From Eremomyces bilateralis CBS 781.70 (taxonomy: Eukaryota), in assembly GCA_010015585.1 (NCBI GenBank), contig ML975160.1: 64,000 nt of DNA. One strand, given 5' to 3'. Each line of letters begins with the position of its first letter. The first letter of the stretch is position 1. The notes beneath the pieces are model-generated. The model had not been told where the DNA came from and ran no database searches. It worked only from the letters and a program-made list of their open reading frames with translations. Below are positions 1 to 35,717 of this stretch, piece after piece. A program made the position numbers and the translations under genes.

Positions 1-344
1 AAGTTCACTTGGATCATCGGCCCTCGATACAATTGATGGGGAGGAATGAGACAACCGGAGAGCTGTGGATGGGAAACAGATTTGCTCTGGCGTTTGAATG
101 GCGGACTGAACCGTCATGGATGATATCATGGTCTGCATTGCGGTCACAGGGCTCACGGCGTTGAGCATGATGCGAAATTCTCTACTCTAATACCCAGAGT
201 CTTTCATTATTAACGATGGAGCCTCAAGTGGTTCTCAGCATCATCTGGTTGATATGAAAGGAGACCCGGTTATGCATACCTCAATGGAGGATTGGTGTGA
301 ACATAAAATTAGCAGCGTGGAATTAAACAACAGCAATACCCAAA

Positions 345-955
345 GGGAAAAGATCGACCTACACCCCCCCAAAGGCTCAACCTACACCCTTCGCACGTGA
401 ATTTGAATTCCTGCAATCTGATTGGTCCATTTAGGAACGGTCATATAGCACGTGACTTATTTTGACGACGTCCCTATGGCGCGGGCACCCTATCACCCAT
501 TTGGGGCAACCCCCAAAACCCATTTTGGGCAAACCCCACCCACCCGTCTTGGGCACCCGACCACCCATCTGTGGCACTTACGACCACCCGTTTTAGGCAG
601 ACCCTATCCCCAGTTTTGGGTTAGCCGCTCGTTGTGGCGGCGTAGAAGTGGTCGAGGGCCGTATAGGCGGCAAAGAGTGCCCAAAAGTGGTGGTACAGGG
701 AGTACAAAATGGGTGGTAGGGGTCGCCCAAAATGGGTGGTCGGGTGCCCAAGACGGGTGGGTGGGGTTTGCCCAAAATGGGTTTTGGGGGTTGCCCCAAA
801 TGGGTGATAGGGTGCCCGCGCCATAGGGACGTCGTCAAAATAAGTCACGTGCTATATGACCGTTCCTAAATGGACCAATCAGATTGCAGGAATTCAAATT
901 CACGTGCGAAGGGTGTAGGTTGAGCCTTTGGGGGGGTGTAGGTCGATCTTTTCCC
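345..955. mobile_element. Non-autonomous Mutator/Foldback-like element (MITE-like), 611 bp, 224-bp TIRs, 9-bp TSD ATACCCAAA
   Basis: 345-568 is the reverse complement of 732-955 (termini GGGAAAAGATCGACCTACACC...GGTGTAGGTCGATCTTTTCCC). ATACCCAAA lies immediately outside both ends (336-344 and 956-964). No transposase. Long TIRs, G...C termini and a 9-bp TSD match the MULE superfamily. Confidence 0.93.
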
Positions 956-1293
956 ATACCCAAAACACCATGTCCTTTCTTTCAACCCGCCTGCTTTGAG
1001 TATGGTCCATTACTATCTAGGAACAGCTTATGCTATGTCACTCCACTTTTGATCTGTACTCCTTGTAGATTCTTGAAACTGTTGAGGCCAATTTCTCAAC
1101 GAATGAAGGGCAGCCAGACTGGCATTGGTATCTCCAAGATGGGCAACATCAGTCATATCAGTGACATTTTCATCATCATGACAAGATATACAAATATAAA
1201 ACTGAAGTGCATTAGATACTGGCCATGTAAAGTCTTTGCCAATTAACTAGATCTAAGAAAAGGTGATGCGAAACTCCGATGCGACCGACCCAA

Positions 1294-3190
1294 TCACGAA
1301 AAAAGTTCCGCCTGCGCCTCCAGATCCATCGCCAGGACTTCCAGCTCAAACCCTTTCAACGTATCCTCCACCATCACCGCCGGCTTCCCTCCCTCAAAGC
1401 CATCTTTATCCGTCCCAGAATACTCCCAATACCAACTAACCTTCCCCCCCTCGTTCTTCGATTTCATGCTCCACTTGCCCAATGGTGGCGAGGCATACGC
1501 GCTCGACTGGTTCTCATCCAGCCCGCCCAGCTTGATCCTCCCCCTAACGGACGCGTGCATCCTCTCGTTGGTGTTGCTCAACTTCTCCCGCTGCGGCTTC
1601 CCCGTCAACGGGCCCGTCCGACGGTAAAACCTCGGCGTCCGATCCAAGCTGCCTCCGAGCGACGTTGGGAAATGGACCGACTCGTAAATAATGCCGACGC
1701 CCCATCCCCAGTTACGATGGAGCTTCCCAATGGTTTGTTGCTGTGTGTACCAGGCTTTGTTCCGGGCGACTTGGTCGGAGATGTAGGTGGGGTGGAAGTC
1801 GAGGAATGGCCGCAAGTTCTCCATCATCCATGCGAGGGAGATGGTGGAGCAGGCGGTGTCTTCATAGCTTCCGCCGACGCTGGAGTGTGCGCCTGGAAAC
1901 CAGCATTGTTTGAGGTTCTTTTCACTTGGTAAGTAGGCTGACCCAGATGCAAAGGCACGTTAAGAACTCACAGTTTTTGAACCATCGGGCTTCTCCCAAA
2001 GGGTCGGTCGGAACGCCGCACGCCTCTCGTCAATTGCTAGGGCTTGGAACGCGTTCTCGACATGTGGGTCGATTCCGGTGTCATAGAACGCGTACTCCTC
2101 GGTAGGAATAGATACTGGCAGCCCGAGTTTCGATAGCCACGGCTGGAGAGGGATTCCAAGGGCACCTAACCATGGCGATCTTAGCATCTTTTACAATCTT
2201 GGTAATCCAAAATTCCAACTTATGCATCGCATATGTTGGTCTGGATGTCTCCAATGCGCCAAGCTCGTTTTCAAGATTTAAGAGGTCACGATATGCCTCT
2301 ATGGCGTTCCATCCGAATTGTTTTGACGGACTCTGGTTCAAAGAACGTCGATCAACTCACCAACAGTATCAAACACTCCGATAGCTTTGACGTTCACCAC
2401 TCGAGTCAATTTCATCTGACAGATATTAGCCAATTAGCAAAGCGGAGGCAAGATAAGACCCACATTCAACAGCTTCTGCTTGTATTCCGCTAGATACGAC
2501 TCGATATTCGCAGGGTTCTCGTGGACATTGAAGCCTTTGATATAATCCGGCAGCATCAATTTGTACCCTTTAAACGTCAGTACCAGTATATAGATTTCAG
2601 CAGAATAAATAATTACCTTCCCGTCCCGCATTCTCGTAGTCTTTAAAAATTGGATAGAATGATCTCATGGCATTCTTCTCAAGAAGCCCGATACTCCCTA
2701 TCATCCCCCCAATGCTCCGTGCAATGTATGAACCCCTGGAAAACCCGACTAGGTATATCTCGTCGTCGTTGTCCGCAACAAAGTTGTCAACCAAAAATGC
2801 ATAGGCTTCCCGAATGTTCTGTTGCAATCTCAGCCACATGCAGATCAGGGACGAGTAGTCACAAGAGGGCCATACTTCGCTGATTCCGGCACTAGTGAGC
2901 CCACCCCAGACCTGGTCAAAGACGTTATCGTTGGACCCAATCCCGTTTTGGTAGTACACGATCTGTAGTACTCCTTGATTGTCCTCTGGCATAATGGCAT
3001 CTCGGAGCAGAGTCACATTCGTTGGAGTCTGGAGGCGTCCGGCGCCAAAGATACCATCTTTCTTCCAGCCAGAGTCAGAGTTCTGCCATGTACCTATGCA
3101 TGTTTAGCCAAATGAGAGAAATCGAGGGGAACCATAGGAGTCACCATCGCAGCAGACGACCAGCTTTTTGGAATTTGGTTTATGTACCAT
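1294..3190 (-). CDS. DUF2235 / Tle1-like alpha/beta-hydrolase (putative phospholipase), multi-exon
   Basis: Spliced N-terminus MVHKPNSKKLVVCCDGTWQNSD, then YYQNGIG, NIREAYAFLVDN, nucleophile motif GFSRG, GVFDTVG, AFQALAIDERR and WFPGAHSSVGG. Short GT-AG introns plus one 195-nt intron (2166-2360). Confidence 0.85.
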
Positions 3191-3406
3191 CTTGAAATAT
3201 TATACCACAAAACGCAGTTAGACAGCTGCTCCACGAAGACTTCGGTAGCAAGCGACTTGATAAACGAAAAGAACCACAAGACAACGCTAAAATGAACTCG
3301 AACGATGGAAGACCGGTACTGAAACAAAGAACACTTCATTTCGCAATAGACATGATGAATGATAACAATACTTATCCTTTCTCCCTCTCGGTGTGACCGA
3401 ACAACA

Positions 3407-3596
3407 TCAGACCGCATGGTCTAAATCAGTCTCAGCCTTTACCCATAAAGCCACACGAGGGGGTCGGAATCTACACGAGGTCTAGAACAGCATTGGCATC
3501 TTCAGACCGCATGGTCTAAATCAGTCTCAGCCTTTACCCATAAAGCCACACGAGGGGGTCGGAATCTACACGAGGTCTAGAACAGCATTGGCATCT
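3407..3596. repeat. Exact head-to-tail tandem duplication, 2 x 95 bp
   Basis: TCAGACCGCATGGTCT...CATTGGCATCT occurs at 3407-3501 and again at 3502-3596 with no differences seen. Confidence 0.95.
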
Positions 3597-19041: not shown

Positions 19042-20871
19042 ATGGATGCAAAACTCACCCTCGAACTCTCCCGCCTCGATCCCTCCATCCCCTTCCACGC
19101 CTCCACCTCCCACCACCACCATACCTGGGCCCGCACCTTCCACACCCGCCCCGAACTCTACATCCAACCGCAATCCATTGAAGAGATCCAGAAACTGATC
19201 ACCCTCGCACGACGATGTCGCCGCCGTATCGTCGTTGTCGGCAGCGCCCACTCCCCCTCCGACCTCACCTGCACCTCCTCCTGGCTCGTCAACCTTGACC
19301 ACTTCAACCGAGTGCTCAGCGTCGATGACGACTCGAAAGTGATGCGCGTGCAGGCGGGCATCCGATTGCACGATCTGAACGCCCGCGCCGCGGAGCACGG
19401 CCTCACAATGCCGAACCTCGGGAGCATCGACGAGCAGTCGATCGCGGGGGTGATGGCGACGGGGACGCACGGCAGCTCGCTATCGCATGGCCTGGTCTCG
19501 TCGCGGGCGCGGGCGCTGCGAATCGTGCTGGCGAACGGGGCGGTGGTGCGGTGTTCGGGGGCGCAGAACGGGGAGCTGTTCCGCGCAGCGTTGGTGAGCT
19601 TAGGGGCGCTGGGGATTATCGTGGAGGTGGAGTATGAGATGGTGGCGGACGTGCAGATCGCGTGGACGCAGACGATCGTACCGAGCGAAACGATTTTGGC
19701 GAAATGGACGGAGGATCTGTGGACGGCGGAGGAGTTTGTGAGGGTGTGGTGGCTGCCGTATACGGGACGGAGCGTCATGTGGAGGGCGAGTAAAGTTGAT
19801 CCAGACACCGCGTCCGCCGCTACAGAAACATCGACGAACGAAGACGGCTCCTGGTACGCTGGCGCAGTCGGATACCACACCTACCATACCCTCCTCTACC
19901 TCGCGCACTACCTCCCCCCCCTCCTCCCCCTCATCGAACGCTTCATCTTCAGCATGCAATACGGCTTCCGTAACGGCACCACCACCACTGGCGCCGCCCC
20001 CCAGCGCTCCGCCCTCCTCATGGACTGCCTCTACTCCCAGCTCGTCAACGAATGGTCCCTCCCCCTCTCCCGCGGCCCCGAGGCCCTATCCCGCCTCACC
20101 GCCTGGCTCAACGGCGACCGCGCCACCGCACAGCTCCCCTTCGACCCGTCCGGCGTCTACATCCACGCGCCGATCGAGGTCCGCGTCTCCGACACCACCT
20201 CTACATCCGAAGCCCACCCCCGCCCCTTCCTCGACTGGTCCTCACCCTCCGAACCCACCCTCTTCCTCAACGCGACCCTCTACCGCCCGCACGGCCTCGA
20301 GCCTGCCTGCGCGGCGCGCTACTACGCGGCGTTCGAATACCTCATGAAGTCGCTCGGCGGGCGGCCGCACTGGGCGAAGAACTTCTGTAGCGTGGGGAGC
20401 GAGGAGGTGAGGGGGTGGTATGGGGAGGATTTGGAGGCGTGGTTAAGGGTGAGGGGGGAGGTGGATCCGGAGGGGTTGTTTGTGGGGGGGTGGTTGAGGA
20501 GGGTGGTGTTGGGGGAAGGGGAGGGGGAGGGGGAGGAAAAGACGGCGAGGATGCCGCTGGAAGAACGCGAGACGAGCCGCTGGGCACGGAATGGCTCTAT
20601 TCTCGGTCGGATTGCCGCCTGGGCTCGCGGGACGCCGACCGCCTCGGTCGGGCAGTTCGGAGGGCACGGCGGGTGGGAATGGCGCGGAGAGGTTGCGGCG
20701 GAGGACGGACGAAGGCTCGGAAGCGGGAAGGCGGGGAGCGTGAGCCCGGTACTGAGTGATGAGAGCTTTGACGTGATGGTGGGGGCGGAGGTGGAGACGA
20801 GTACGATGTTTGGGAGTATAGGGAGTTTGGATGAGGGAGATGAAGGGGGCGAGACGGACAAGGGGGAGTGA
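19042..20871 (+). CDS. ALO1: D-arabinono-1,4-lactone oxidase (FAD-linked sugar-lactone oxidase)
   Basis: TWARTF, VVGSAHSPSDLTCT (covalent-FAD His), NLGSIDEQSIAG..ATGTHGSS, SLGALGII, HAPIEVRVSD, GGRPHWAK. Intronless. Confidence 0.93.
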   Translation: MDAKLTLELSRLDPSIPFHASTSHHHHTWARTFHTRPELYIQPQSIEEIQKLITLARRCRRRIVVVGSAHSPSDLTCTSSWLVNLDHFNRVLSVDDDSKVMRVQAGIRLHDLNARAAEHGLTMPNLGSIDEQSIAGVMATGTHGSSLSHGLVSSRARALRIVLANGAVVRCSGAQNGELFRAALVSLGALGIIVEVEYEMVADVQIAWTQTIVPSETILAKWTEDLWTAEEFVRVWWLPYTGRSVMWRASKVDPDTASAATETSTNEDGSWYAGAVGYHTYHTLLYLAHYLPPLLPLIERFIFSMQYGFRNGTTTTGAAPQRSALLMDCLYSQLVNEWSLPLSRGPEALSRLTAWLNGDRATAQLPFDPSGVYIHAPIEVRVSDTTSTSEAHPRPFLDWSSPSEPTLFLNATLYRPHGLEPACAARYYAAFEYLMKSLGGRPHWAKNFCSVGSEEVRGWYGEDLEAWLRVRGEVDPEGLFVGGWLRRVVLGEGEGEGEEKTARMPLEERETSRWARNGSILGRIAAWARGTPTASVGQFGGHGGWEWRGEVAAEDGRRLGSGKAGSVSPVLSDESFDVMVGAEVETSTMFGSIGSLDEGDEGGETDKGE

Positions 20872-26210: not shown

Positions 26211-27816
26211 TCATTTGTTTCCTGCTCTCTCCTGGAAGAAGTCCTCAATGACCTTCACCGTGATCCGAACAATCTCCTCGATGTCGGCAGGGGTGACGAT
26301 GAACGGCGGACAAACCATGATGTGGTCTCCTTTTCGACCATCGGCAGTGCCACTACCCGGATAGAGGGAGATGCTGTACTTCTCTTCCATGCCTGGATCA
26401 TCGTTAGCAGATGAGCCTAAAGTAGGTTAAGAAACATGCCTTTCTCATGAATGCCAGCGGAGATGGCTTCTGATGGTTCAAATGGCGCCTTGGTCGCCTT
26501 GTCTTGCACAAATTCGATCTAATACCATCAGTTCCGTCCTTAGAGGCCGTGAAAGACACTTACCCCCCAAAACAAACCTTTCCCTCGAATATTGCCAATA
26601 TGCGGATGGTCTTCCAACCCCTCCTTCAGCAGCTTTTCAAGGACCAACCCCATCTCTCTCACATTATCAACAAGCTTCTCCTCCTGCAATATCTTCTGCG
26701 TCTCCAGCGCGGCTGCGCACGCAATCGGATGTCCCTGATACGTCTGGCCATGCGTGAACGCCCCCGTGCCTCGATCGAGCGCGTCAACTACTCTCTGGTT
26801 CATCAGCAACCCCGCGACCGGACTGTACCCGCTACCTAACCCCTTGCCGATGGTCTGGATGTCGGGCACGATGCCTTCCTGCTGCCAGGCGTGGAGGGTG
26901 CCGCAGCGGCCCATGCCGCACATGACTTCGTCGAGGATGAGGAGGATGCCGTACTTGTCGCAGACTTCGCGGATGGCTTTGAAGTAGCCTGGTACGGCGG
27001 GGACGCAGCCGGTGGCCTATAAGGGGCGTCAGGGTTACTATCGCACTACTGACCTTCGCACATGGATTTTCATGTGGAAAAAGAGCTGGACGTGTGGGAT
27101 ATGTAGACACTTACCGCCCCAACCACCGGCTCCGCAACAAACGCACACACCGTCTCCGGCCCTACCCTCCTCAACTCCTCCTCCAACTCCCTCGCCAACC
27201 TCCCCACATACTCCCCCTCCCCCTCCCCCTCCCTCATCCCCCGATACGCATCACACCTCCCCACCCTTCCCACCTCCACCCCCAACAACGGCGCAAACTT
27301 CTCCTTCCGCAACACATGCCCTCCCACCGCCAACGCCCCCAACGTCACCCCATGATAACTCCCCTCCCGCGCCACAAACCCCGTCCGCCGCGCCCCCTCC
27401 CCCCGCTCCACCCAATACTGCCGCGCCAACTTCATCGCCCCCTCCATTGCTTCGCTCCCGCTGCTCACGATGAGCGCGCGTGCCATCGCCCCATCCGTCC
27501 CGCGGATGAGCTCCGCGCAGAGGTCCTCGGCTGCGGTGGTACTGAAGAAGAGGGAGTGGCAGTAGGAGACTTGGTTCATTTGCGCGACCATGGCGGATTG
27601 GACGCGGGGGTTGCCATGGCCGAGGCTGGTGACGGCGGCGCCGGAGGTGGCGTCGAGGATGCGTTGGCCGGTGGAGGTTGTGAGGTAGAGGCCGTGGCTG
27701 GAGGTGATGCGGAGGGGGCGGTGGTGGAGGTGGCGGTGGAGGACGGCGCTGGGGGTGGAGGGGTCATCGGTGCCATTGGCGGCCGTAGCAGTGGGAGAGC
27801 GATTAGATGGAGGCAT
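26211..27816 (-). CDS. Class-III PLP-dependent aminotransferase, multi-exon
   Basis: ILDATSGAAVTSLGH, SGSEAMEGAMKLARQY, SYHGVT, AFVAEPVVGA, DEVMCGMGRCG, PDIQTIGKGLG (Schiff-base Lys), HGQTYQGHP, RGKGLFWG. Confidence 0.92.
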
Positions 27817-29785: not shown

Positions 29786-31973
29786 TCACCCCTCCCTATC
29801 CCTCCCAATCATCGACATCAAGAGATCCAGGAATTTATCCCACTCCCCAGCGCCGCCACCACCACCCCCTTGCTCCCTATTGCCAGCACTCACCTCAATT
29901 ACCCCCGAACCACCCGCGGGCCCTGACACGACTCTACCATCCGAGCCTCCACTCCCCTCAAAACTCACGGAACTACCCACGGGCCCGGACACGATTCTGC
30001 CCCCTGAGCCGCCACTGCCTCTGGAACCGCCACTGGGGCCGGGCCCTCTTCTGCCGCTCGGGCCGCTGAACAGTGACCCTAGCCAGGAGAGTGCGGACAT
30101 CCCGCTGTTGTTGGAACCGCCGCTGGGACGGCCTGGACGGCCTTGGTCTTCGGGTTGTGGTGGATACTGAGGTTGCGGTTGCGGTTTAGGGTGCGGTGCG
30201 GGCAGCGTCTCGGGCTGCGGTTCCGGTTGTGGTTCTGGTTGCGGCTCCGGCTGTGGTGAGGGTTGTAGCGAAGGCTGTGGTGAGGGCTGAGGTATGGGCT
30301 GCGGTTCAGGCTGTGGTGAGGGCTGCGGTTCAGGCTGTGGTGAGGGCTGCGGTTCAGGCTGTGGTGAGGGCTGCGGTTCAGGCTGTGGTGAGGGCTGCGG
30401 TTCAGGCTGTGGTGAGGGCTGCGGTTCAGGCTGTGGTGAGGCCTCCGGTACAGGCTGCGATTCAGGCTGTGGTGAAGGCTTTGATGAGGGTTGCGGTTCA
30501 GGTTGTGGGGAGGCCTCCGGTGCAGGCTGTGATTCAGGCTGCGGTGAGGGCTGTGGCGAGGCCTCCGGTGCAGGCTTCGATTCGGGCAGGGCGGGTTGCG
30601 GACGGGGCCTTCCTGGAGCTGGTGCCTGAGAAACCCCAGTACCAATCGCATCTGGCGCGTCAGGTTGCTGCGCCAATCCGATTCGCGGGACGCTTCCCCC
30701 TTCGAATACCACAAAGATGCTCTTGAGGAACGTGTCTCCGAGGACCGTGAACGGGAAGCCGTCGCTCGATTGGAGCCCGCCGAAGCATTGCGGCTGGTTC
30801 CCGATGGTGCCGGTGAATGCGTATTCCATCATTTTCCCTTCGATGACGTGTTGGCGGCCTTGGACTACGAGTCCGAGATTCGGGAGCTGGGTGCCGCATG
30901 GGAAGATATAGCCGCCGGCTTGGGCGTGAAGCTGAGAGCCTGGCACGGTCGCCCAATAGGCGGAAACCACGGTGCTAGGGAGTAGCGTGAGTGAGGTACC
31001 GGTATCGATAATCGCAGAGAAAGAAGTAGTGCTTGGACTAGCGGAGCCGATTTGGGCGCCTTGAACTTCGAGTCCCCAATATCCCTTCTGGGTGTCGGCA
31101 TTGATGTATTGGATACTGCCTTTGTAACGAGCGCTGTTGATGTACCCGAAGTCAAACGCACCCGGGGCCCCTTTTCGGAGTTGCACGGTAAAAAGGGGGC
31201 GGGTTAACTGAGCCTGGATGTTCTCGAAGAAGGTCGGTTGTGGTGTGGGTCGAATGGTATTCATGTGTCCGAACCCGAGACCAAGCAGCCCATCATTTTC
31301 TTCGTCCTCTTTGAAGATGTCCGATACTTCCGTGGCGGCTCCGACGGCCTGCTTTGGGGCCACGATTCCTCCCACTTCTACTTGATCGTGATACACCACA
31401 CCGGATGCGCTGCTTCCGTCGCCATATTTCACGTTCCATGTGTGATCTGCGAGTTTTTGGGAAGAAGAGGAAGGTCGATATACCGCATGACTTCCTTGCT
31501 CTGCGGTCGGCAGCAAATTGGAGAAGCACCACCTACAGTACGAATCAGTTAGTTAAACAGCCAGTTAACCACCGGCTTGATTATGCTCATGCTGCTCTAC
31601 TGGCAATGGGAGTCTTCCTTCTTCCGGCGATTAGATAGAACCATACGTACATATCTGATGACCCCGTGTCAAGGTCTAAGTCAAGCAAATCTTGGCCAAT
31701 GCGCACTTGGGAAAGATAGGCAATGTCATTTTTTTGAGGAACGGCCGGGACTGTCCCATTCTGATACATAGCCACAGCCTCTTGAACGTCAACGGGTACA
31801 ATAACATTGTACTTGCGGTAGGCTCGGCGGAAGTCGTATACTCCTACTCTCGTCCGGTGTTTTGCAGCTTGCTGATGGACTGTGAACGACCGCTTCTGCA
31901 ACCTGTATGCTGGTGACGCCACGGCCAGCGCCACCAGAGCGACCAGAGCGATTAAGGATCGAAAAGAAGCCAT
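29786..31973 (-). CDS. Secreted A1 aspartic protease (aspergillopepsin/endothiapepsin-like) with long Pro/Gln- and Gly/Ser-rich C-terminal extension
   Basis: Signal peptide, propeptide with KR, both catalytic motifs LDLDTGSSD and IIDTGTSL, flap YGDGSSASG, DGLLGLGF, LGDTFLK. One intron (~31533-31650). Confidence 0.93.
30297..30440 (-). repeat. Coding minisatellite, 6 perfect 24-bp units encoding (SPQPEPQP)6
   Basis: GGCTGCGGTTCAGGCTGTGGTGAG repeated six times on the + strand. Degenerate copies extend roughly 30170-30580. Confidence 0.95.
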
Positions 31974-33309: not shown

Positions 33310-35717
33310 TCACCGTCCTTTTCCCGTCACCGCTTCCTCCAGCTTGACCAATGCATCGGCATACGACTCCCGTCTTCTAGCAAGATCCTCTTCCTTCACA
33401 CGCTGTCGATCAACCTTCTTCTCGCCGCGCAATATGTCCTTGGACCTTGCAACGTTGTTCCAGAACCACCCCGCTTCCGTATTCGTCACAAGCGTCCACG
33501 CTTGGCCGCCCTTCCCAGCTCTCGCCGTCCGTCCCACGCGATGTACGTAGCTCTCAAGGCTACGTGGAATGTCGTAGTTGATTACGTGGTCAAGGTCGAG
33601 GAGATCAAGACCGCGAGAGGCACGATCCGACGCGATGATGACGCTGATGCGCTTGGATTTGAAGGCAGCAAGAATTCGTTTCCGGTCGGCGGAGCCGTCT
33701 TGTTTTGTAAGGGTCCCGATGCTTGACGCCAAGGATGGTTCGATCGACGAGATGAGATGGAAAAGGCGGGTGGTGTTCTCGTTGCTGCTGACGAATATCA
33801 AGACAGTGGGACCGTGTGTCCTGCTGCTGATGGCATCTTTCACATTCTTCCGAGATGCTTCCGAGTCGTCGCTGGAGTCCGACGAGTAAGAGTCAGAGTC
33901 CGAACTGTTAGATGAGTCTGATGATGTGCTGTCGCTGTCAGAGTCCGAACTAGATGAGTCTGATGATGTGCTATCGCTGTCCGAGTCCGAACTAGATTCG
34001 TCACTCGATAAATCCGTGGCTTCATTGGAAGCATCTAAATCAACTCTAGGTCGGTCGAGGGCACCCAATAACCTGTCTTTCAACAGACTAATGAGGTACA
34101 GTGGCTTCTCTGAGGGATCCTCAACAGGTACAACCCATTCGTTCAGGGTTGAAGGGAGGGCAAGTGTTGCCTCTGGATCCCCCGATCCATTGATCTCGCC
34201 ATTCTGCCCCTGCTCGAGACCGACGGAGACAAATTTTGGTCTTCTCAGCTTCAGTGTACTGAGCTTCTCAAGATCTCGGGTCATCGTGGCACTCAGTATG
34301 ACCTTTCTGATCGCTTTTTGACTAGGAGGTTCACCAATAATGACCCTCATCTGATCGGAGAGGGGCAATCTGTCGAATGCCCGTTCTTTGTATAGGCTGT
34401 TATTAATCGTATCAACCCATTCTTGGAAACTGTCATCCAGGAGGCGGTCCGCTTCGTCAATCACTAGCCATTCAACCTGGTCTAGTGAGAACCCTGTAGT
34501 AGACTTGATGTGGTCCACAAGTCGCCCCGGAGTGCATATCAGGATGTCGACTTTGGACACGTACGATGGAACATGGCCGGGAATCATGCCCAGGAAGGTC
34601 TCCAGCTCAGGGCTATAGTCTTCCAGTCCTTTCTGATAGATCTTGTTGGCTTTCGCTTCCAGTAATTCTGCAGCTTTCGGATCGAAGATTCGGTCAATCT
34701 CTATCAAACTTTCTTGTTCTGTGGCTAGAGACTGACTCCCAACCGCGATTCCCACTTGCACGCCAGTACCGGTCGCGCATAATTCGCAGACCTCCCGAAC
34801 CTGACTGACAAGTTCTCTTGTGGGAACAACAATAACGGCTCGAAGACTGGGAGCGTGTCGACCCTTCAGAGACTCGACGATCGGAAGGACATATGACAGT
34901 GTCTTTCCCGAGCCCGTGGCTGCGGAAACGCACAGGTCTCCAATCCATCTCTCCGGTCCAGGTAGAATCAATGGTAGGACAGCGGCTTGTACAGCAAAAG
35001 CATGTTTGAAGCCCTTTGTCTCAAGCCGCTCTGTCAATTTCGGATCGATGTTTAAGTCGGTGAACGGGAGTCGTGTCGAGGACGATACGTGTACAGGCTT
35101 AGCAAGCCATGAGGGCAATGAAGAAAATGTGGGGTTAAATTTTGGTTCGGGCTCTGGTTCAGGCTGTGGTAATGGCTGTATTCCTTTGCGGTGTATTAGT
35201 TGAATGCGCACTTGCTTGTATAAGAGACCGTACCTTGGGGCTCTCGCTCCAGTTGTAGAGGAACATCCTCCTCCACAGGTTGTGCAGGTTGTATTGTTTC
35301 TGTCGGTGCGGTGTGTGCTGATGAACGCTGGTACTTCTGGAGTAACCTTTTGTGCCTTTGTAACTCCTGAGTCGACTCGTGTTCATGTTCCTCCTCAGTT
35401 CTTTTGCGCTTGGAGCCTTTACTCTTCGTCACCTTTGGCAATTCGGTCTTCTTGCTGTCGACATCCACGCCTTGGACTTTTTCTTGAAATACCGAGTTAT
35501 CCTCGAGGTCATTGTGGCTAAGATCCTTGCTCTTCTTCTTTGTATCAAGCTCGAGTTCTTTGGCTTTCTTTGGCTTTTTCTTCGGTTTATTTCCTTCGTC
35601 CGGAGGAGGAGCTTTTGGAGCCGGATCGGGGTTTGGCGAGGGAGCGGTCAAACCGGAGGCACCTGTTGTTGTGCCTTTCTTCGGCGGAATATACCTCGAA
35701 TAGAATGCGGAAGCCAT
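33310..35717 (-). CDS. DBP6: DEAD-box RNA helicase Dbp6/DDX51 (60S biogenesis), 2 exons
   Basis: MASAFYSRYIPP N-terminus, Q motif FAVQ, DLCVSAATGSGKTLSYVLP, PTREL, TPGRLVDH, IDEADRLL, SAT, SRGLD, YVHRVGRTARAG. Confidence 0.92.
33896..33997 (-). repeat. Imperfect 42/45-bp coding tandem repeat (Ser/Asp-rich insert in DBP6)
   Basis: GAGTCCGAACT(GTT)AGATGAGTCTGATGATGTGCT[G/A]TCGCTGTC at 33896-33940 and 33941-33982, plus a partial third copy. Confidence 0.85.

Follow-up and report, generated by a model that had tools for sequence, protein, structure and literature searches.

A 611-bp non-autonomous fold-back transposon with arms of 23-nt repeats, probably Mutator-like, beside a fungal PF09994 gene

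The interval 345–955 of the window (the whole 64-kb stretch of DNA that was analysed) is a real cut-and-paste transposon of 611 bases, nearly all of which form one long inverted repeat. It is a non-autonomous class II fold-back element located in intergenic DNA, 3′ of a fungal gene, and it probably belongs to the Mutator-like (MULE/Foldback) superfamily.

Structure of the element and its target site

The repeat search identified an inverted pair at 345–620 and 680–955, with arms of 276 nt that are 92% complementary and lie 59 nt apart. The ungapped comparison of 345–620 with the reverse complement of 680–955 gave 21 mismatches in 276 nt, all of them within 569–613. Since every mismatch is confined to that interval, 345–568 and 732–955 form a perfect 224-nt inverted repeat. 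The first-pass annotation, made by eye, had described these two segments as exact reverse complements, and no mismatch was found between them; the full arms are longer than it had them. The extended arms occupy 552 of the 611 nt (90%), leaving the 59-nt loop as a short middle, and the perfect arms occupy 448 (73%), as in the earlier estimate that three quarters of the element fold as a hairpin. As single-stranded DNA, the sequence 336–964 is predicted to fold into one hairpin of −352 kcal/mol, against −101 ± 5 kcal/mol for 20 shuffled sequences (z = −49). The tips of the element read GGGAAAAG.../...CTTTTCCC.

An exact 9-nt direct repeat, ATACCCAAA, flanks the element at 336–344 and 956–964, and it had already been read as a 9-bp target-site duplication. 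The bases adjacent to it mismatch (335 against 955, and 345 against 965), so that the length of the duplication is exactly 9 bp. The probability of a 9-nt match at fixed positions is about 4e-6, and neither the inverted repeat nor the flanking duplication can be attributed to chance.

The element and its parts are as follows:

336–344, unstranded: left target-site duplication ATACCCAAA, exact match to 956–964
345–955, unstranded: non-autonomous fold-back element, bounded by the target-site duplications; flank contigs enter it by only 30 nt
345–620, plus strand: left arm (terminal inverted repeat, TIR), 276 nt, of which 345–568 is perfectly complementary to 732–955
345–390, plus strand: two terminal 23-nt units with the common core ACCTACACCC at 357 and 380 (348–366 and 371–389, 84%)
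391–482, plus strand: 92-nt non-repetitive section; sites present are two CACGTG (394, 449), a CCAAT box in reverse orientation (421) and GAATTC (405)
483–620, plus strand: left subterminal array, six 23-nt repeats in tandem, with the core ACCACCCATTTTGGG as read on this strand (TRF)
621–679, unstranded: 59-nt central loop, the sole part outside the inverted repeat (repeat search)
680–817, plus strand: right subterminal array, likewise six 23-nt repeats, with CAAAATGGGTGGTAGGGGTTGCC as the TRF consensus
818–955, plus strand: outer part of the right arm, comprising the unique section 818–909 and the terminal units 910–955, a perfect mirror of 345–482
956–964, unstranded: right target-site duplication ATACCCAAA, exact match to 336–344
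1294–3103, minus strand: neighbouring gene, PF09994 (former DUF2235, Tle1-like alpha/beta hydrolase; Pfam scan)

No second copy was found in the 64-kb window, where BLASTN gave only the self match and matches of 12–17 nt at E ≥ 1.4, and the repeat scan detected no other long inverted repeat in it. The GC content of the element is 0.548, compared with 0.527 for the window and 0.41–0.47 for the immediate flanks.

Anatomy of the arms

When the sequence is set in rows of 23 nt, each arm measures exactly 12 × 23 nt. From the tip inward, a pair of terminal 23-nt units is followed by a unique stretch of 92 nt and then by the six 23-nt subterminal repeats in tandem. Neither the subterminal arrays nor the length of 276 nt for the complete arms had been given by the first-pass annotation. 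TRF reported the left array in two rows (487–555 and 540–599) with period 23, where the autocorrelation peak at lag 23 is 0.41, and the right array at 705–812 with 4.7 copies and a score of 116. The terminal units are a candidate transposase-recognition motif. The combination of a terminal motif with a subterminal tandem array corresponds to the composite-TIR build of Foldback-type elements.

Perfect identity between the arms ends within the third unit counted from the centre. The innermost 2.3 units (680–731 on the right) differ between the arms by 21 mismatches in 52 nt (60% identity), a difference that consists of distinct unit variants in the two arms and not of gradual decay. Contigs from other copies, of which only partial sequence is readable, carry different unit variants as well (loose end at 540).

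The arms also contain E-box-type CACGTG palindromes at 394, 449, 846 and 901, CCAAT boxes at 421 and 875, and one EcoRI site each. The CACGTG and CCAAT sites may be promoter or factor-binding remnants of a parent element, or they may be there by chance.

Other copies of the family

Contigs were taken from two DNA runs of one sample, X1 and X2, which hold 85–89% of the sampled words of positions 1–1400, and from X3, a related organism with the same species label. The sample of X1 and X2 is probably the source of the assembly, and is not independent of it. Contigs were placed on the window at 80% likeness, the place of a contig being its first or last aligned base. At least 22 pieces were placed for X1 and at least 29 for X2, many of which fit both arms. 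The contigs of the flanks (1–374 and 926–2000) reach 30 nt inside the element, as is expected of 31-mer contigs at a repeat that extends from 345 to 955.

The junctions of a second copy were visible among these contigs. On the left, the alignment of one contig starts at 342, and the 255 or more letters before it are unlike the window and end in ...CAAAGT; together with the aligned AAA (342–344 of the window), this makes the left flank end in CAAAGTAAA. On the right, another contig, seen only in X2 among the matches listed, aligns as far as 955 and then reads CAAAGTAAATACC.... The second copy has CAAAGTAAA at both flanks, a perfect 9-bp duplication that differs from ATACCCAAA, around the same element ends. 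Its flanks part from the window at 342–345 and at 955, and the C-run at 364 of its left arm is shorter by two bases. The earlier reading had taken the element for a recent insertion of a non-autonomous family mobilised in trans by a MULE transposase, and had proposed a check for other copies with a different 9-bp duplication; the second copy is such a case and supports a transposon insertion of a multicopy family. Among the matches listed, 9-bp duplications are present in both of the two copies with both junctions visible. An 8-bp (hAT-like) duplication was also considered for the second copy and was ruled out, the alignment place being the first aligned base.

Further pieces of the family, among the matches listed, have 5–17 other letters over roughly 60–150 nt. 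A 121-nt contig of a diverged subfamily stops exactly at 955, and a contig of 10,105 nt ends in 97 nt of the repeat array. At 632 and 634, loose ends correspond to diverged forms of the central loop; some of the other copies therefore have the arm-loop-arm form too. We conclude that this is a low-copy mobile family, which includes the copy described here, the second copy and at least one diverged member.

The passage from the left arm through the loop to the right arm is covered by contigs 372–702 (X1) and 539–761 (X2), with one other letter each. The read contigs collapse the two arms and, among the matches listed, none spans the whole element; the perfect identity of the arms is thus that of the assembly itself. 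At position 533 (mirror position 767), where an A-run meets a C-run, high-depth contigs of X1 and X2 have C and the assembly has A. Either the copies vary here or the consensus is wrong in both assembled arms, so that the arms of the assembly may in part represent a collapsed consensus. Summed word depth is greater over 336–1005 than over the flanks, a value that is not a copy number; the arms also collapse onto each other.

Genomic context and coding capacity

The window is fungal in content, with Zn2Cys6 and Fungal_trans domains and ordinary housekeeping genes. Next to the element, the minus-strand ORFs 2600–3103 and 1297–1959 match PF09994 with E-values of 4e-33 and 2.7e-10, and the stop codon of this gene, at 1294–1296, lies 338 nt from the end of the element. 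These results correspond to the DUF2235 gene and the distance of about 340 bp given by the first-pass annotation, which had also stated that the element encodes no transposase, as is confirmed below. The related organism X3 yielded one 26-kb contig, approximately 78% identical to the last PF09994 exon, which matches only 1294–1434 (31 other letters) and 1822–1877 and has unlike sequence beyond the stop codon. It covers nothing of 1–1293 and so carries no information on an empty site; neither an empty site nor the element in an independent strain was seen in the runs compared. The similarity to the gene ends exactly at 1294, which supports the stop at 1294–1296. The gene piece of X3 is either a diverged orthologue or a paralogue.

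Other repeats occur elsewhere in the window. A 95-bp tandem duplication with two copies 98% identical (3402–3591) is located upstream of the PF09994 gene or in its 5′ part. The minus-strand aspartyl protease ORF 29789–31552 (PF00026) has a long repeat of 12-nt period in its C-terminal part (30137–30592), which gives a low-complexity tail with a weak PARP-like match. The minus-strand DEAD-box helicase ORF 33313–35382 contains a 42-bp in-frame tandem duplication (33909–33992, 95% identical). Finally, a 31-nt G-rich/C-rich inverted pair (20505–20535 and 27211–27241, 87%), with members 6.7 kb apart, looks like a chance product of low complexity.

The longest frame through the element (449–823) has 125 codons from stop to stop and is a by-product of the repeats; it matched no Pfam family, and there were no matches at E ≤ 0.001 among 1,835,955,588 representative proteins. 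The element is non-coding, with no recognisable coding capacity. A search of Rfam over 1–1500 gave no match at E ≤ 1. No transposase was present among the 97 ORFs of the window that were scanned for domains, namely 9 ATG-ORFs and 88 taken from 149 that run from stop to stop over 110 codons or more, the other 61 being left out of the scan as overlapping the chosen ORFs in other frames.

The composition of the element shows no RIP-like decay when judged by the usual thresholds, with a TpA/ApT index of 0.84 and a (CpA+TpG)/(ApC+GpT) index of 1.04.

Wider searches were carried out with short parts of the element. The 20-nt terminal stretch had no match in metagenome contigs. Among prokaryote genomes, it occurred as one bare 20-mer, without extension, in a bacterial MAG contig, which was discounted because one such match is about the chance expectation in 596 Gb. 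The paired 12-nt repeat core was found at nine metagenome loci, all of which are coding or other simple repeats, and none of them is similar to the element by BLASTN at E ≤ 1e-3. The terminal 15-mer, as a literal string, had no occurrence in published papers, and the titles and abstracts retrieved by full-text literature searching described no foldback-type element in a true fungus.

Comparison with known elements and classification

The duplication is 9 bp long in two of two copies, a length that lies within the 8–11 bp, typically 9 bp, of MULEs. The TIRs, with 224 nt perfect and 276 nt at 92%, also agree with the MULEs, whose TIRs commonly exceed 100 bp. Each arm has six plus two 23-nt units; in Foldback elements, too, the TIRs are built of subterminal repeats in tandem and can adopt a secondary structure. 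Elements of the hAT superfamily have 8-bp duplications, which differs from the 9 bp found in both copies. The CACTA/EnSpm elements have CACTA termini and 3-bp duplications, and neither the ends nor the 9-bp duplication seen here correspond to them. Classical MITEs present short TIRs and high copy number; considering its long TIRs (276-nt arms) and low copy number (few distinct contigs), the element is not a classical MITE.

The statements on published elements made here refer to the available parts of the cited papers. MULEs are described with long TIRs (>100 bp) and target-site duplications of 8–10 or 8–11 bp (PMC5499845; PMC6446971). The Foldback-like MULE families Tm1 and Muta1 combine composite TIRs of tandem repeats with duplications of 9 bp, or 8–9 bp in Muta1 (PMC3169594; PMC5499845). 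The view of the first-pass annotation that long TIRs with a 9-bp duplication are hallmarks of MULE and Foldback elements agrees with the available parts of these three papers (PMC5499845; PMC6446971; PMC3169594). With no transposase among the window ORFs scanned, the assignment of the element to the MULEs is drawn solely from the duplication length and the build of the TIRs, features that are typical of this superfamily and not exclusive to it, and the length of the duplication comes from two copies only.

Muta1 is an active MULE of Aedes aegypti described as a "type 2 foldback element", with a 145-bp TIR made of a terminal motif and nine 12-bp subterminal repeats, and target-site duplications of 8–9 bp (PMC5499845). 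Its terminal motif is required for binding and joining, and more subterminal repeats lead to more transposase binding and excision (PMC5499845). The fungal element shares with Muta1 and its derivative Muta1NA1 a terminal motif followed by a short tandem subterminal array within a long TIR. It also resembles Muta1 in the duplication length and in a terminal motif that begins with GGG, and Muta1 has natural non-autonomous derivatives that consist of the ends and a short internal piece, as is the case here (PMC5499845). On the other hand, the repeats here are six of 23 nt in a 276-nt arm, instead of nine of 12 bp in a 145-bp TIR, and a 92-nt unique section separates the terminal units from the array (PMC5499845). 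The host of Muta1 is an insect and that of the present element a fungus, and the two are likened by build, not by sequence similarity (PMC5499845).

Tm1, a Mutator/Foldback family of root-knot nematodes, has TIRs of composite build that include tandem repeats; its duplications are mostly 9 bp long, and both MITE-like members and a MULE transposase belong to the family (PMC3169594). The present element resembles it in its multi-domain composite TIRs with a tandem array, its 9-bp duplication and its small size without coding sequence; in Tm1, most elements have 9-bp duplications that lack a clear target consensus, and the small non-coding members occur alongside a copy with a Phantom-type MULE transposase (PMC3169594). 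The terminal motifs of Tm1 are asymmetric, 7 bp long and placed beyond the inverted repeat, and its units measure approximately 14 bp, whereas the present element has symmetric ends and units of 23 nt. The TIR pairs of Tm1 average 93% identity, and here the outer 224 nt are identical (PMC3169594). By analogy, the element may work like Muta1NA1 and the MITE-like members of Tm1.

Hop is a fungal MULE, and the TIRs of such elements are longer than in most superfamilies. The MULE groups of Ascomycota have TIRs of 22–99 bp, or as much as 220 bp in one mixed group, which are shorter than the arms found here, and the available part of that survey mentions no tandem subterminal arrays (PMC6446971). 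They share with the element the fungal host and the length of the duplication, which is 9–10 bp in the Mutyl sub-group and 9 bp in Phantom-Ca (PMC6446971). Hop and other MULEs of Ascomycota are autonomous and have several kb, in contrast to the non-coding 611 bp described here (PMC6446971); copy counts of Hop in Fusarium were reported elsewhere (PMC3599309). As classical MITEs do, the element combines small size, no coding sequence, TIRs and a target-site duplication, a position near a gene and a transposase that would act in trans, but MITEs have short TIRs and high copy number (PMC5172404), while here the arms account for 90% of the element and the evident copies are no more than a handful.

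If the element moves as its build suggests, a DDE transposase encoded elsewhere in the genome would recognise the terminal motif and act in trans. The two terminal units could serve, by analogy with Muta1, as the site of recognition and cleavage, and the 23-nt subterminal repeats as loading sites for several transposase copies. The transposase would then excise the element and reinsert it across a 9-bp staggered cut, the repair of which would generate the 9-bp duplication.

Alternative explanations

A fold-back transposon of the same type could have been mobilised by another DDE superfamily, such as hAT, P, Merlin or an unclassified fungal group, which we regard as unlikely. Subterminal repeats are present in hAT and CACTA elements too, and Merlin makes target-site duplications of 8–9 bp. 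No transposase was recognised among the 97 ORFs scanned in the window, and foldback elements are found in the P superfamily as well as in the MULEs (PMC5499845). The duplications of exactly 9 bp at both copies with visible junctions, against 8 bp in hAT, 7–8 bp in P and 3 bp in CACTA, and ends that are not CACTA, argue against such an origin. In addition, arms above 100 bp with 9-bp duplications are the stated pattern of MULEs (PMC5499845; PMC6446971; PMC3169594).

A young insertion is suggested by the duplication, which is intact, by the perfect outer arms and by the lack of RIP-like composition, although arm homogenisation or assembly collapse could produce an identical picture. The corresponding alternative is a dead relic that has lost its autonomous partner, with this copy fixed and immobile and the arms kept identical by intramolecular gene conversion or by collapse in the assembly; we consider it improbable. 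Few copies are evident, several of them diverged by 5–17 letters among the matches listed, no transposase was recognised among the window ORFs scanned, and the read contigs collapse the arms. The change from 224 perfect nucleotides to 60% identity over 52 nt resembles homogenisation, and is unlike uniform ageing. Against a relic, the duplication is intact at 9 of 9 positions both here and at the second copy, and the GC content and RIP indices given above show no RIP-like decay by the usual thresholds. Only 5 of 61 Tm1 elements have TIRs that are 100% identical (PMC3169594), so that perfect arms would usually signal youth.

The palindrome could be a false one, created by chimeric reads or by an assembler that folded the repeat back, since the runs are probably the assembly's own data and, among the matches listed, no contig of X1 or X2 spans the element. 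However, both flank junctions are present in read contigs (1–374 and 926–2000), contigs 372–702 and 539–761 join the left arm to the right arm by way of the unique loop, and neither a matching 9-bp duplication at both junctions nor a second copy with a duplication of its own would be expected of an artefact, which we therefore find hardly credible. Very improbable, in our view, is also a hairpin locus in use by the host, in which read-through from the neighbouring gene would yield a 276-bp dsRNA diced to small RNAs and the transposon origin would be secondary. The strand does fold into one near-perfect hairpin, 338 nt past the stop of a minus-strand gene, and a 714-nt inverted repeat gives rise to 21-nt siRNAs in an oomycete (PMC3804510). 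Nevertheless, the region has no Rfam match, and transposition fully accounts for a multicopy sequence with target-site duplications.

Significance

The non-autonomous transposon is of an ordinary kind, and nothing in it is unexpected for a Mutator/Foldback-like element. In annotation, it is to be masked as a DNA transposon, and further copies and the autonomous partner can be sought by means of its ends and 23-nt repeats. The near-perfect 276-bp hairpin is a likely source of assembly breaks and of replication fragility and, if transcribed, of small RNAs.

The build of TIRs with subterminal repeats has been documented so far mainly in animals and plants. In maize, the Mu killer inverted duplication silences MuDR. 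It is conceivable, but rather doubtful, that the element represents a still-active fungal lineage of Foldback type with TIRs of 23-nt repeats, whose hairpin, if transcribed by read-through from the neighbouring gene, would feed RNAi and, in the way of Mu killer, silence the family itself. In an active family, the element would act in this fungus as a natural insertional mutagen, small in size and close to genes, and would offer a convenient substrate on which to study the loading of transposase by subterminal repeats.
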